DNA of 62,897 nucleotides, counting the filler, from Reclinomonas americana ATCC 50394 (taxonomy: Eukaryota), in assembly GCA_048213135.1 (NCBI GenBank). It is 12 parts of 9 records of this genome, joined end to end, with 100 filler letters (N's around TTAATTAATTAA, not from the genome) between each part and the next. Parts side by side here need not be neighbours in the genome. Positions count along the whole stretch, not along the records: positions 33,167 to 35,774 come from AFZH01016761.1; positions 35,875 to 42,584 come from PS016112.1; positions 42,685 to 54,942 come from PS016113.1; 9 more parts are not named here. One strand, given 5' to 3'. A program made the position numbers and the translations under genes. This document shows, in pieces, positions 33,328 to 53,422 of the stretch. Every line of letters starts with the position of its first letter. Position 1 is the first letter of the stretch. The notes beneath the pieces are model-generated. The model saw only the letters and a list, made by a program, of their open reading frames with translations, had not been told where the DNA came from and made no database searches.

Positions 33328-33480
33328 TCAGTAGCTTCCGGCCGACGTGGTCGTCGAGTCAGGCGCAGTGGTGGTGGTGGTGACACCATTGGCGGTCGTG
33401 TACGTGCCGCCCGTGCTCGCAGCGGCGCCTGCGTCAGAGACGGCGGCGCTGATTCCGAAAAGGGCGTCGAGGGCTTCCAT
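33328..33480 (-). CDS. microprotein P1 (50 aa) MEALDALFGISAAVSDAGAAASTGGTYTTANGVTTTTTAPDSTTTSAGSY
   Basis: Close paralog of P2; family motif present; AG acceptor 5 nt before the ATG. Confidence 0.75.
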   Translation of the reverse strand: MEALDALFGISAAVSDAGAAASTGGTYTTANGVTTTTTAPDSTTTSAGSY

Positions 33481-34639
33481 AATGTCTATAGAGAGGGAGG
33501 GAGGGTGAGGGAGATGAAACAACAAGAGAATGAATGAAAGGAGAAGGGAGGGGGAAGAGAGAGGAAGGAGGTAGGGGGAGAGAGAGAAGAAAGAGAGAGA
33601 GAGGGAGAGAACGGGGATGATAAAGAGAATGAAGGTGTACATATGGGAGAGACAGAGAAGGAGGCAGGGGGAGAGAGAGAAGGAGAGAGTGTGTGAGAGA
33701 GAGAATGGCATATGAAAGGAGACGGGAGGGGGAAGAGAGAGGAAGGAGGCAGGGGGAGAGAGTGAAGAGAGAGAGAGAGCGTAAAGTATGGCAAAAGATG
33801 CGCATACGCACACACGCAAAGTGGCATACGAAGCGCGTGTGTGAATGCGAGAGAATGTGTATGTGTGTGCGAGAGAGAGAGAGAGAGCAAGAAGAGGGGG
33901 AGTGTGAGAGTGCGAATGAGTGTGAGAAGTATTTATCATAAAAAGCATGCAGAGCGTGCGTGTGTTGAGGGAGAGAAAGAATGCATCTGTGCGTGTGCGG
34001 GAGAGGGAGAGGGAGAGAGTGAGACACACCTTGCGTGCAATGAACACAAAAAAGTGAGTGATCGTCGGACGGGACCGATACAGCGTGCGAAGGCGGGAGT
34101 GCTGAGGGAGGACTGCAAAGCCCTGAGTCATGTGAGTCTTGGTGTTGTACCACGTTGGTCTCCTGCTCCTGAATTGCAAAGCTTGGCTCGTGGCCACTGC
34201 AGCTGCTTCGCGATATCGGATCCGGTCGGATCTAAGTCCTTTGCTTGCCCCGGCTTTGCCACTGCTTCGTTGCTTGCCTCACAGGTCCAATGCCCGCTTT
34301 GGCCGTTTACCGACCATAATATGTCCTTTGCTGAGCGCATCCACAGCTGCAAGTGCAACTGCAAGACGGCGCTGGGTCACACTTTTATGGCACTCCTGAC
34401 AGTCGGCTTATTGTAAGTGATTGCAGGGCGACAGGCCGCAGCGAGGGCGCTGTCATGCGATGCAGGTCAATCATGGTTGGCCGACACCTGCGCAATATCA
34501 AAGGCCAGCTTGTGCTCCACCGGCCCATGCCTGGGGGCGACAGTAAGAGAAGAAAGACGAGAGAAAAGATGAAGCGAAGAGGAGAAAAAGGAGAGAAGAG
34601 AAGAAGAGGTCATCAATGAATGAATTGTTGTTGTGGAGG

Positions 34640-35355
34640 AAAATAAATGACAAAGAAGAAAGAGGCGAGAGAGACGAGAAGAGAAGAGAGAATGGAACAG
34701 AAGGTAGAGCCAACACAGCGCATTTCAACATGCAGTTGCCTTGCGAATCTAAATAAACGAGAGAAAGACAGGCCTTGGAGAGGAGGAAACGAGATGACAA
34801 ATGAAGAAAAGAGGCGAGAAGAGAAGAGAGGAAACAGAGGGACGAGCCACCAAAGCGCAGATTAACACACAAGTTGCCTTGCGAATTCAAATAGTAGGAG
34901 GAGGGAAGAGAGAAAGACAGGAGAGGAGGAAACGAGATGACAAACGAGACGAGAAGAGATGAGAGAGACGGAACAGCCACCAGCGCAGATCAACGCACGG
35001 TTGCCTTGCTAATTCAAAAGAAGACAGGAGAGGAGGAAACGAGATGACAAAAGAGGCGAGAAGAGATGACGAGAGAAGAGAGGATGGAACAGAACACCAA
35101 AGCGCAGATCAACACACAAGTTGCAAAGAGTAGGAGGAGAGAAGAGAGAAAGACAGGAGAGGAGGAAACGATGACGAATGAAGAAAAGAGGCGAGAAGAG
35201 AAGAGAGGATGGAACAGAAAAACATCGAAGATCAACACACAAGTTGCCTTGCTCATTCAAAAGAAGACAGGAGAGGCGAGAAGAGGCGAAGAGAAGAGAG
35301 AATGGAACAGAACGCCACAGCGCATATCAACACACAAGTTGCCTTGCGAATTCAT
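34640..35355. repeat. degenerate tandem repeat, ~120-bp period, ~6 copies
   Basis: GCGCAGATCAACACACAAGTTGCCTTGC variants recur. Confidence 0.8.
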
Positions 35356-35415
35356 ATTGTTGACGTGCCACGAAACACTCTCTCTCTTCTCTCTCTCTCT
35401 CTCACATCTTCCCTC

Positions 35416-35571
35416 TCAGTAGCTTCCCGCAGCAGGCACATCCGGCACAGTGGTGACCGTGGTAACGCCACTGGCGGTGGTGTAGGTGCCGCCCGTGCTC
35501 GCGGCGGCGTTGGCGTCAGAGACAGCGGCGCAGTCGGCGCCTCCGCTGAAAAAGTTGACGAGGAATTCCAT
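35416..35571 (-). CDS. microprotein P2 (51 aa) MEFLVNFFSGGADCAAVSDANAAASTGGTYTTASGVTTVTTVPDVPAAGSY
   Basis: Shares AAVSDA..AASTGGTYTTA.GVTT and terminal AGSY with P1. Confidence 0.75.
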   Translation of the reverse strand: MEFLVNFFSGGADCAAVSDANAAASTGGTYTTASGVTTVTTVPDVPAAGSY

Positions 35572-36565
35572 AGTGTCTGTGTAGGGGAGAGAGAGAGAGA
35601 GAGTGAGAGAAGAGGCGGGGGAAGAGTGGGAGAGAGAGAGAGAGAGTGAGAGGAGAGTGTGAGTGAGAGAATGAAGAGAGAGAGGGAAGAGAGGGGGAAG
35701 AGAGAGTGAGAGTGAGCAACTGAGAGTGTGTGAATGAGAGAGGGGAATTTCATAGTGCCTGTGGAGGAGAGAGANNNNNNNNNNNNNNNNNNNNNNNNNN
35801 NNNNNNNNNNNNNNNNNNTTAATTAATTAANNNNNNNNNNNNNNNNNNNNNNNNNNNNNNNNNNNNNNNNNNNNGAGAGAGAGAGAGAGAGAGAGAGAGT
35901 GAGAGAGAGAGAGAGTGACTGAGTGAGAGAGTGAGTGAGTGAGTGAGAGAGTGTGAGTGAGAGTGAGTGAGAGAGAGTGAGTGAGAGTGCGTGTGAGAGA
36001 GAGAGAGAGAGTGAGTGAGTGTGAGAAGGAGTGAGTGAGTGAGTGAGTGTGAGTGTGAGAAGAAGGAACTGGACAGACTATATTGATGAGCGCCAACATG
36101 CGCGCGCGTGACACACACGCACACACAGGTGGAAACACACATACACGTGCAGCATTAACCACAACACGCACCTTGTGTTTGCGTGCGAGTGAGCGTGTAT
36201 GTGCGTGAGATTCAAAGATGCGTGTCCCTTGACGTCGACGGCCTCTCCTCGTCTATTCTCGCTTGCCCTTTGTGCAAGGTTGTGAGTTTGCTTTGTTTGT
36301 TTGCCGCATCACCAACAAGCACAAAAGCAAGAGTGGGAGCGCGAAGTTGTTTCGCCGCAAAGAAAAGTCGTCGACAGTCGCTGTTTGTTCGAGAATCACT
36401 GCAGTGGCAAGAGACGCCACCACTGCCTATCATGATCCACGCAGCGTGGCAAATCGCAAAAGACACTCAAGAGACGCGCGCGCATTTCACACACACACGC
36501 AATCACAAAATGCCTCTTTTCCCGTTTCTCCACTCCTCCTCACTGCGAGCTCCTCATGCCTGTGA

Positions 36566-51632: not shown

Positions 51633-51803
51633 TCACACACCCGGGAGGCCGAGGGGCGCCGACGCCGAAGAAGACACACCAGATGTGCCGGGAAGAAGCC
51701 CAGTGCCGGCAGGATTGCAAGCGGTGGCAGGCAACGCAATGTCGCCGGCGCTGACCTGCGCACCAAGACCTGGATCGGGAATAATCGAATTCGTGCTGCC
51801 CAT
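51633..51803 (-). CDS. microprotein P15 (56 aa) MGSTNSIIPDPGLGAQVSAGDIALPATACNPAGTGLLPGTSGVSSSASAPLGLPGV
   Basis: Frame conserved with P14 despite internal indels. Confidence 0.65.
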   Translation of the reverse strand: MGSTNSIIPDPGLGAQVSAGDIALPATACNPAGTGLLPGTSGVSSSASAPLGLPGV

Positions 51804-52438
51804 TGCAACGTGCTGCGCGCAAGGCATCACAGTCGTGAGAAGAGCGTACACTGATCTTGACTGCTCTGTCCAATTCTCAACACAATCCTCTCTCTCTTCC
51901 TCTTCATCTTCTCTGATGAGGATAAGAGTGTTGTTCTCCAGCCTCCATCACTCTCTCTCTCTTTCCCTCTCACTCACGCGCGAGACGCAGCTTCAGTGTG
52001 CATTCACGCGCGCACAGTGCAACGGAATGAGACGGATGAAAGGATGGGAAGGAAGAACGAGACAAAACTGTGAGTGCCGTGCGCCAACGAGAGAGAGAGA
52101 GAGAGGTGGCTCGTGCAATGATAGTCGCGTTGTAAAGCCCAACCCGCCAGACGCTACCTTTTCTTTGCGCGACGAAGAGCACAAGGACGATGAAAACGCC
52201 GTGAAAATTTGACTGCCTTCTTGATCGAATTCTCGCAGCGCGAGGCGGCGTCGTATTGGTGGAAAGCCTGCTCCCATCGACCCTCCCATCCTGTGCAAAC
52301 GAATCACAATCATCAAGGAAGGGGTTCTGCAAGGGTTCATTCTCTCAACTGCGAGCATTCGAGCTCGCAGTCAATGATCATGAGGCATCATAGAACGTCG
52401 ATCTCGTCGCGATCGATCACTGCACACATGCACGTTCT

Positions 52439-52585
52439 TCACAAGTTGAGCTCGAAGTCAAAGTTTGGATCGGCCGCGGGACCACTCGGAGTAAAGTAGC
52501 CCTCCCCGATGACGACAACGGACGGAAGACACCCGGATGCCAGGTCGTGACGCAGCGCCGCAATAGAAAGGCAGGAGGGATCCAT
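52439..52585 (-). CDS. microprotein P16 (48 aa) MDPSCLSIAALRHDLASGCLPSVVVIGEGYFTPSGPAADPNFDFELNL
   Basis: Paralog of P13 with a frame-preserving length difference; AATGAA at 52336-52341. Confidence 0.7.
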   Translation of the reverse strand: MDPSCLSIAALRHDLASGCLPSVVVIGEGYFTPSGPAADPNFDFELNL

Positions 52586-53275
52586 TTCAGACTGCACATG
52601 CACGCGGAAGGTACGCGACAGCAACGTATGAGTGAGACGAGTACTGACAAAGGATGGCATGCAGCAGTGCGTGCTCGATCTGTAGCAGTTGCTGCAGCTG
52701 CCCTCGTCACGCATGCGCTGCTCTACGTAGCTACATCTGTCCAAGTCTCAACAATTTCTTCTGCACACCGCTGTTGCAAAAAGAGAAGCACGCAAGACAT
52801 AAACCAGGTAGTCATGCACTCAGTGATGCACGCTCCATGTCGGCGCATCGTGCGTGTTCTCAATCGCACCATCAGCCAACCTACTTCTTTTGCTGTACTG
52901 GTAAGTGCACACATCTCAAGCCTCTCTCTCCCCCTCCCTCGCTGCTCTCATGTGTGTGAGTGAGTGAGCGCGCGCAGCGCAAAGGTGTGGGTGACATGTC
53001 GCCAGCTTGCAGCCGCGAGGGTGCACAAGCTTCTTCTCCGCCACTCACTCGCAAGAGTGAAGACGAGAGACTAAACAACCAAACAACGTACCTCTGCGCA
53101 CAGACTGCGTTAAAGAAAACACACAGGGCCACACAGCTGCACACAGACCACTCGACGGAAACTTGACTGAACACGAACAGAAACCAACGTGGTTTTGACA
53201 ACGTAGTTGGTTTTGACAAGTTTCATTCTCTCTCTTGCCACCCTGGCCTCCTGCTAGCTTACTTCATGCAAGCAT

Positions 53276-53422
53276 CTACGGACCAAACGTCAACACATCA
53301 CCGGCGGGGATCGGCGACGAGCAGCCCGCCATATCCGACACGGGCGTGGCAACCATTCCGCTGCCGACGCCGTAGTTAAGGTTCTGAGAGCCGTACGTGT
53401 AATAGCCGCCACCGCTGTCCAT
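53276..53422 (-). CDS. microprotein P17 (48 aa) MDSGGGYYTYGSQNLNYGVGSGMVATPVSDMAGCSSPIPAGDVLTFGP
   Basis: Motif GMVATPVSD; CAG|GCAA-ATG; AATGAA at 53222-53227. Confidence 0.65.
   Translation of the reverse strand: MDSGGGYYTYGSQNLNYGVGSGMVATPVSDMAGCSSPIPAGDVLTFGP

Follow-up and report, generated by a model that had tools for sequence, protein, structure and literature searches.

The stretch of DNA examined here (the window) is 62,897 nucleotides long, filler included, and was joined from 12 parts of nine records of the Reclinomonas americana ATCC 50394 genome (GenBank assembly GCA_048213135.1). Its minus strand carries at least 18 short open reading frames (ORFs), numbered here P1 to P18 along the window, which are probably real, translated genes for a family of microproteins; we base this reading on their codon usage, periodicity, frame-preserving insertions and deletions (indels), start context and 3'-end signals. 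An original prediction had listed 17 of these ORFs as a tandem array of microprotein genes sharing one conserved motif with hypervariable remainders. It suggested that they encode either precursors of RiPPs (peptides that are made on ribosomes and modified after translation) or motif-bearing regulatory microproteins. The same five lines of evidence back its proposal of an expanded microprotein gene family that annotation is likely to miss.

Results

A family of short ORFs on one strand

All 17 motif strings of the original prediction were found in minus-strand frames where it had placed them. An eighteenth unit, P18 (54237-54386, minus strand; 49 codons), was absent from its list and has the same anatomy as the others: a CT-rich tract, a YAG, 4 nt and then ATGG, with an AATGAA at 54193-54198, 38 nt past the stop codon. 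The motif of P18 is degenerate and lacks the closing aspartic acid. When a profile of all 18 units was run against the 1325 six-frame ORFs of the window, no further member appeared, the next best ORF having an E value of 0.0034.

The description of these units as a tandem array holds in that at least 18 of them are co-oriented, but the array is split over four assembly pieces (33167-35774, 35875-38207, 39195-42584 and 42685-54942) and a pectate-lyase-like gene lies between P3 and P4. The interruption of the array by assembly gaps, also claimed originally, is borne out by this distribution: P1 and P2 are on the first of these pieces, P3 is on the second and P4 to P17 are on the fourth, with no family member on the third. 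The joins between pieces consist of 44 N, 12 bases and 44 N at 11 places (e.g. 33067-33166 and 42585-42684), and there is in addition a single gap of 987 N; the 12-base insert translates as L-I-N or L-I and is taken as an all-frame stop linker. Since the order and orientation of the pieces depend on these joins, the co-orientation of P1-P3 with P4-P18 is equally join-dependent.

The individual units, all on the minus strand, follow a common plan with local departures from it. P1 (33328-33480; 50 codons) has a CT tract and a TAG 5 nt before its ATG, and an ATGAAT at 33266-33271, 56 nt past its stop; its sister P2 (35416-35571; 51 codons) is followed by ATGAAT at 35350-35355. P3 (36566-36739; 57 codons) has a CAG 16 nt before the ATG and no AATGAA-type hexamer within 200 nt past its stop. 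AATGAA follows P4 (42921-43082; 53 codons; hexamer at 42888-42893, 27 nt past the stop), P5 (43772-43903; 43 codons; hexamer at 43745-43750), in which the upstream CT tract is absent, and P7 (44563-44718; 51 codons; hexamer at 44544-44549), as well as the sisters P6 (44154-44288; hexamer at 44107-44112) and P8 (45315-45470; hexamer at 45242-45247), both of which have GTG instead of ATG. P9 (45753-45896; 47 codons) has no AATGAA and carries ATTAAA at 45693-45698, 54 nt past the stop; P10 (47403-47549; 48 codons) is followed by a cluster of AATGAA at 47337-47351 and then by a pure G/T run; and P11 (48043-48192; 49 codons) has a CAG 5 nt before its ATG, with no AATGAA-type hexamer found past its stop. 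AATGAA is again present past P12 (49345-49500; 51 codons; hexamer at 49265-49270), P13 (49947-50078; 43 codons; hexamer at 49853-49858), P14 (50753-50917; 54 codons, with a Met-Gly start; hexamer at 50657-50662), P15 (51633-51803; 56 codons; hexamer at 51509-51514), P16 (52439-52585; 48 codons; hexamer at 52336-52341) and P17 (53276-53422; 48 codons; hexamer at 53222-53227). P16 is the sister of P13, and P15 that of P14. Most of the interval between P1 and P2 is occupied by a purine-rich tandem repeat (34635-35354) with a period of about 125 bp and diverged copies.

The lengths of 43-57 residues originally given for the family hold when counted from the family start position. From the first in-frame ATG, however, five ORFs are longer (P1, 267 residues; P6, 116; P13, 69; P15, 64; P16, 91), because the CT-rich tract upstream has no stop in frame. 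An ATG start is present in 15 of the 17 listed ORFs and, with P18 included, in 16 of 18; in P6 and P8 the GTG occupies the corresponding position, its context having A at -3 and G at +4.

Coding signal and selection

The coding tests (codon-position composition, periodicity, codon usage and indels) were made without using the motif. Over the 17 listed ORFs, codon-position composition (G at 48% of first positions, A at 9% of third positions, and 70% G+C at third positions) matches that of the proven glycerol-kinase exons of the window. For the ORFs the base-by-codon-position chi-square reached 259 (p = 4e-53); for the 150 nt downstream of them it was 6.0 (p = 0.43), and for the upstream side 5.9 (p = 0.44). 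Codon-usage log-odds, trained on the glycerol-kinase, BNR and WD40 exons of the window, were above zero in 18/18 ORFs, against a median of -0.20 in 112 non-overlapping control ORFs (Mann-Whitney p = 1.6e-10). Eleven of the 18 exceeded the control 95th percentile, and the other five frames at the family loci had mean log-odds of -0.01 to -0.50. Eleven family ORFs were eligible for a ranking of the 138 ATG-to-stop ORFs of 40-60 codons in the window, and they took ranks 1-5, 7, 12, 13, 18, 19 and 20, the first five being P9, P7, P11, P17 and P5 in that order. The only other top coding-like segments between 33 and 55 kb are pectate-lyase exons.

The sister pairs had been said to keep their reading frame through indels, and a count of internal gaps in the four pairs (P1/P2, P6/P8, P13/P16 and P14/P15) agrees: gap lengths are multiples of three in 9/11 cases within the ORFs and in 6/27 cases within the 200-nt flanks (Fisher p = 0.0011). 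Identity within the ORF exceeds that of both flanks in three of the four pairs, and in the motif codons third positions differ with the residue retained. Estimates of dN/dS, which come from short sequences with uncertain tail alignments, were 0.41 for P1/P2, 0.62 for P6/P8, 0.95 for P13/P16 and 0.77 for P14/P15.

Composition of the products and the shared motif

The chemical character claimed for the products is borne out. They contain 2 lysine and 9 arginine residues in 892 (K+R 1.2%), whereas the K+R share of 126 control ORFs of 40-60 codons is 16.6%; the isoelectric point (pI) is at most 5.9 in all 18 and below 4.8 in 17, against a control median of 9.5; and 60% of all residues are Gly, Ala, Ser, Val, Asp or Thr. 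The second residue of the 16 ATG units is Asp in nine, Glu in four, Gly in two and Asn in one. On direct reading, most members have acidic residues within the first five positions and a long hydrophobic run is absent, in agreement with the claimed lack of a signal peptide. AlphaFold2, supplied with the family alignment, returned no secondary structure (pLDDT 63.7, pTM 0.15), and the products are predicted to be disordered.

The shared aliphatic stretch closes in Asp in 15/18 units, the exceptions being P15, P16 and P18. A regular expression for this motif, composed after the matches were known, gave 18 matches when all six frames of the window were translated. The minus strand has 16 of them, at 33453-53353, and 14 of the 16 are motifs listed originally. 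The idea of one conserved motif is upheld in part. The motif is enriched, but the family signal across subfamilies is weak: in a cross-subfamily test made entirely with full-length profiles, leaving out one subfamily at a time, only 3/18 left-out members ranked first among non-training ORFs (P4, E = 0.005; P11, E = 0.04; P18, E = 0.088), with P14 fifth and P5 seventh. The hypervariability of the remainders likewise needs qualification. P1 and P2 are identical at 35/48 aligned residues, and four columns of the 18-row alignment are conserved at 70% or more, namely the start Met (at least 90%) and three others, which, judged from the rows, include the motif-closing Asp and a Pro in the tail.

Start context and candidate 5' introns

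The start context is Kozak-like, with a purine at -3 in 15/16 ATG units and G at +4 in 15/16, and most family ATGs stand 0-17 nt past a YAG that ends a pyrimidine-rich tract. A composite start anatomy, defined as a purine at -3, G at +4, a YAG no more than 20 nt away and a pyrimidine content of 70% or more, was present at 10 of the 1662 ATGs in the window, and seven of the ten are family starts. The CT-rich tract and YGCAG before the family ATGs resemble the intron acceptors of the glycerol-kinase gene, and consensus-like donors are present at the 5' edge of the CT tracts. A candidate intron in the 5' untranslated region (UTR) of P7 would run from CAG/GTGAGT (44798-44810; the slash marks the splice junction) to a GCGCAG 9 nt before the ATG, the donor lying about 85 nt before the acceptor, and one in P12 from AG/GTACGT (49702-49709) to a CCCAG 17 nt before the ATG, about 190 nt from donor to acceptor. 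P13, P14 and P16 have AG/GTACGT as candidate donor about 490 nt before the acceptor. The candidate donors of P6 (GTTAGA, within 44346-44356, about 64 nt before the CAG) and P8 (GTTATA, within 45538-45548) are about 64-70 nt before their acceptors. The window has five copies of the octamer AG/GTACGT, each on the minus strand: at 50572-50579, a candidate 5' splice site upstream of P13 and inside the conserved block (element D) described below, at 51407-51414, at 53086-53093, at the P12 site (49702-49709), and at 39975, in the region of the pectate-lyase-like gene.

From this layout we infer that each unit consists of a short non-coding exon, a 5' UTR intron and a single coding exon. A CT-box promoter or trans-splicing might produce a similar upstream picture. 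As the cause of the YAG before the ATGs, spliced-leader trans-splicing is ranked below cis-spliced 5' UTR introns, because consensus donors are present upstream and the pectate-lyase-like gene has no acceptor before its ATG.

Putative signals past the stop codon

In 16/18 units an AATGAA, ATGAAT or ATTAAA is found 13-118 nt past the stop. The longer string GAATGAAWC matches 10 times in the window against 1.07 expected, every match being on the minus strand between 42886 and 54199, and 17 of the 21 minus-strand copies of AATGAA lie between 41797 and 54198. Minus-strand ATTAAA occurs only twice in the window, once past the glycerol-kinase stop and once past that of P9. The 50 nt that follow the hexamer are mildly G/T-rich (best 20-nt window 0.76, against a background of 0.66 with a standard deviation of 0.12). 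One study of Aspergillus oryzae names AAUGAA, AUGAAU and GAAUGA as the hexamers with the strongest over-representation 14-29 nt ahead of poly(A) sites (PMC3111234), and a list of plant near-upstream hexamers places AAUGAA 16th and AUGAAU 17th in rice, with both lower in Arabidopsis (PMC7591816). By this likeness the AATGAA-type hexamer is a putative poly(A) signal. Each ORF seems to have its own 3'-end signal, which speaks against a single gene with the ORFs as its exons.

Proposed duplication history and element D

In a self-comparison of the locus, sister units showed about 70% identity, reaching into the flanks. Other subfamilies have no detectable DNA similarity to one another, and length, strand, composition, start context and 3' hexamer are still common to them. 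A conserved non-coding block on the minus strand, which we call element D, lies after P14 (50400-50752), with copies after P15 (51230-51632) and P17 (52900-53275). It has a mean column identity of 71%, with long invariant runs around CGCAG-AG-GTACGT, and is conserved as strongly as the ORFs. Element D would comprise the 3' end of one unit together with the promoter and first exon of the next, or it may be a functional RNA. Because element D follows P14, P15 and P17, P16 resembles P13 and P15 resembles P14, we infer that a two-gene block was duplicated (P17-D-P16 to P14-D-P13) and that a P14-type unit was copied once more.

Searches for homologues

The family profile was compared with the proteins of 23-100 residues in a 5.8-billion-protein collection; there were 418 word candidates, none at E <= 10. 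Against 1.84 billion representatives it gave 15 matches at E <= 0.001, in proteins of 669-5035 residues matched via 2-39 short stretches. Pfam was run on nine of these 15 large proteins and assigned five to SprB, three to PKD or CHU_C-type domains and one to cadherin. We rejected them as homologues, the matches being repeat-driven and reflecting a strand-like pattern. None of the 18 peptides matched the SprB, PKD or cadherin models at E <= 1, and a Pfam search with all 18 had a best E value of 0.034, with nothing at E <= 0.01. Among metagenome loci, P2 and P12 as queries yielded 598 and 599 pattern matches, respectively, none of which was confirmed. The best ESM Atlas scores for P12 and P3 (0.78 and 0.80) were at chance level, and a profile search of the PDB found no match at E <= 1.

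Neighbouring genes and other features of the window

The DNA of the window is eukaryotic, about 55% G+C, with abundant CT/GA and CA microsatellites. Pfam was run on 117 ORFs between 33 and 55 kb and 79 ORFs in the rest of the 62.9-kb window (196 in total), and the neighbours recognised are Rad4, glycerol kinase, a WD40 protein, a BNR/sortilin-like protein and a pectate-lyase-like beta-helix protein. No peptidase, cyclase, methyltransferase, oxidase or tailoring-enzyme family was found among these 196 ORFs, so that the statement that no modifying enzyme is visible in the window stands.

The glycerol-kinase gene (24560-26794, minus strand) has at least eight short GT-AG introns, with an unusual donor consensus (GTTGCG at 3/9 donors) and YGCAG acceptors that follow CT-rich tracts. 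Its closest relatives in the 5.8-billion-protein collection are only 44-48% identical, and, given this distance, the source lineage seems poorly sampled. The pectate-lyase-like beta-helix gene (about 37372-42054, minus strand; PF12708, 52 bits) lies between P3 and P4 on the strand of the array. Its first exon is signal-peptide-like and is followed by a CT-rich intron of about 1 kb, with more exons past the 987-N gap; GAATGAAT is present 6 nt 3' of the in-frame stop after this first exon (41797). A segment with a look-alike motif stretch (37702-37872, minus strand) was rejected as a family member, being an exon of this same gene.

Rfam gave no match at gathering score and no tRNA was found in the window. 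A GA/CT inverted repeat at 43352-43476 drew many matches to miRNA-precursor families on both strands, all under their gathering scores, and is most likely a simple-repeat hairpin. Downstream of the array, 56033-56269 and 60621-60857 form an inverted pair of 82.7% identity inside two BNR/sortilin-like coding regions on opposite strands, which suggests a duplicated gene pair. Finally, a 50-codon ORF at 32518-32667 (minus strand) begins Met-Glu and has a family-like start anatomy (CT tract, CAG, purine at -3 and G at +4). Several lysines are present in it, and the family profile does not pick it up. Another gene may begin with this ORF as its first exon, or the ORF may be a very remote relative of the family.

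Discussion

The best explanation of the locus as a whole, to which we give a probability of roughly 0.55, is that independent small genes encode disordered acidic proteins that act via one strand-forming motif. At least 18 separate protein-coding genes would then lie on a single strand. Each would begin with a short non-coding first exon, followed by a CT-rich 5' UTR intron of about 60-500 nt whose final YAG is 0-17 nt upstream of the ATG, a single coding exon with 43-57 codons, and a short 3' UTR that contains a signal of the AAUGAA, AUGAAU or AUUAAA type, in many cases with G/U-rich sequence after it. The array would have arisen by repeated tandem and block duplication and then diverged fast. 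The products would be strongly acidic (pI about 4), with hardly any Lys or Arg and no signal peptide, and, as predicted, disordered. In sequence, the only features widely shared among them would be Met-Asp or Met-Glu at the N-terminus and a single aliphatic stretch, usually closing in [Ser/Gly/Thr]-Asp. This stretch may be a short linear motif that adds a beta-strand to a common partner, with the variable tails tuning or diversifying the interaction. Motif-mediated binding as the mode of action is the more doubtful part of this picture, and we put it forward tentatively. Of the two natures originally suggested for the products, motif-bearing regulatory microproteins appears to fit the data somewhat better than RiPP precursors.

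Several observations weigh against this explanation. An ATG is missing from P6 and P8. Amino-acid composition, on which the original prediction had already selected, contributes to the codon-usage score, and the dN/dS values of 0.41-0.95 imply no more than weak constraint over most of each ORF. The flank blocks of P14 and P15 are kept as well as the ORF between them. Similarity between subfamilies is weak: profiles built with one group left out recovered none of group S (P1-P3) or group A (P13 and P16), and the regular expression for the motif was written with its matches in hand. At the 3' end, the G/T enrichment past the hexamer is modest. The poly(A) role is put no higher than putative because an AATGAA-type signal is not seen past the other genes of the window, save for the ATTAAA of the glycerol kinase. 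The binding mechanism, for its part, is a proposal from the chemistry of the sequence.

Some of these observations would be expected if the transcription units were real and their ORFs non-functional as proteins, the units being either young non-coding or "proto-gene" duplicates or a decaying pseudogene family. The dN/dS of 0.95 in P13/P16 and 0.77 in P14/P15, the absent ATG of P6 and P8, the equal conservation of flank blocks and ORF in P14/P15, the lack of homologues in the libraries searched and the predicted disorder would all suit such an origin. However, neutral ORFs would lose codon usage, K+R depletion and start context over such divergence, and this counts against it: host-like codon usage and periodicity are found in all 18 ORFs, even in subfamilies without mutual DNA similarity, indels preserve the frame, start contexts are uniform, and the depletion of Lys and Arg is extreme beside the 13% Arg of random ORFs in the source genome. 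We consider this origin unlikely. It is very improbable, to our mind, that one or a few larger genes contain the ORFs as exons, or that the ORFs belong to a known repeat family of the SprB or PKD type. The 3' splice-site-like YAG before most ORFs, the G that precedes 11/17 stops and so gives GT at the stop, and the matches of the family profile to giant repeat proteins could be read in that way. Every unit nevertheless has an in-frame stop, with the poly(A)-type hexamer within 13-118 nt in 16/18. The distance from YAG to ATG (0-17 nt where a YAG is nearby) is not constant modulo three, the ATG and its Kozak context are conserved, no other coding-like segment lies between units, and no peptide matches SprB or any Pfam family at E <= 0.01. 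The worry raised with the original prediction, that one larger gene had been cut into its exons, is therefore not sustained by the separate stops, the separate poly(A)-type signals and the variable YAG-to-ATG distance. A protocadherin-like model, with variable first exons joined to constant ones, was also rejected: an in-phase GT is missing near the ends of P1, P2, P6 and P9, and no constant exons were found.

The array could also encode precursors of RiPP-like or otherwise processed peptides, in which the conserved stretch would be a recognition or cleavage site for an enzyme encoded elsewhere and a variable C-terminal core would be modified. A short precursor with a conserved stretch near its N-terminus and a variable rest, present as many paralogues with fast turnover, has the right form for this. 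The near-absence of Lys and Arg would shield the peptide from trypsin-like proteases, and the Asp that closes the motif in 15/18 units could mark a cleavage site. Set against this, none of the 117 and 79 ORFs scanned with Pfam belongs to a peptidase, cyclase, methyltransferase or oxidase family, the products have no signal peptide, no Kex2-type dibasic site and no Pro beside the variable part, and the tails of P1 and P2 are well conserved where a core should vary. We know of no RiPP classes from protists, and processed precursors seem to us a rather unlikely account. A broader version, to which we also give little weight, is a protist-specific diversifying system of leaderless, Lys/Arg-free acidic peptides, serving as RiPP-like precursors or as a bank of decoys or adaptors. 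Each gene would then combine a shared docking or processing motif with its own variable tail; in the decoy or adaptor form, the variable peptides would all plug into one cellular partner via the same strand-forming motif. If the RiPP-like form of this system were true, these could be the first such precursors outside fungi, plants and animals.

Independent genes for disordered acidic microproteins remain the explanation we prefer. If translated, they would constitute an orphan family of approximately 5-kDa proteins that standard pipelines miss twice, since gene callers skip ORFs below 60 codons and trypsin-based proteomics is blind to peptides without Lys or Arg. They would also give a clean example, from a eukaryote, of a tandem array in which microprotein genes multiply and diverge, and with so simple a gene layout the family would lend itself to testing. 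Over 892 codons basic residues are almost wholly excluded, although random ORFs of this genome carry 13% Arg; this is a strong constraint and points to a definite biochemical role.

Parts of this family recall systems described elsewhere. SUMO-interaction motifs have an aliphatic core beside acidic or Ser residues and bind by beta-strand addition. In the present family, a stretch of Ile, Val, Leu or Ala with Asp, Glu, Ser or Gly after it lies within a chain that is acidic and predicted to be disordered. This resembles their general consensus and may serve as a lead, although several members deviate from the usual aliphatic spacing. Fungal and oomycete effector clusters and the Gly/Ser-rich small proteins of the Dictyostelium hssA/sigN type are lineage-specific, tandemly duplicated families with small products that evolve by birth and death, and effector families have signal peptides and often cysteines. 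The present family is likewise one of lineage-specific tandem small proteins, but it has neither signal peptides nor cysteines, is almost devoid of Lys and Arg, and is strongly acidic.

The architecture of the family had originally been compared with that of the fungal MSDIN precursors. In Amanita these are reported to be 33-37 residues long, with a 10-residue leader starting MSDIN, a core of 6-10 residues flanked by Pro and a 17-residue follower, and to be processed by the prolyl oligopeptidase POPB (PMC5159998). Both systems comprise many very short paralogous genes with a conserved and a variable part, spread by duplication and too short for routine annotation. The particulars of the comparison do not carry over: the products here are 43-57 residues long, start with MD, ME, MN or MG, and have no Pro flanking the conserved stretch. 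A single Pro column is conserved at 70% or more, and it is far down the tail, away from that stretch. The stretch itself is aliphatic and closes in Asp, no peptidase was found among the scanned ORFs of the window, and there is no sequence similarity, so we regard the likeness to MSDIN and other RiPPs as an analogy only.

A limited keyword search of the literature found no comparable microprotein array in a eukaryote. The nearest analogue in form appears to be bacterial: a preprint on Leptotrichia describes tandem arrays of variable microprotein genes, in up to 44 copies and with conserved predicted structures, from a library that it presents as drawn from secreted or membrane-associated microproteins (bioRxiv 10.64898/2026.08.11.744246). 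Compared with the arrays described there, the family in R. americana is eukaryotic and probably spliced, has no signal peptide and has no predicted fold, and the two are unrelated; what they appear to have in common is the arrangement itself, many variable microprotein genes set in tandem.

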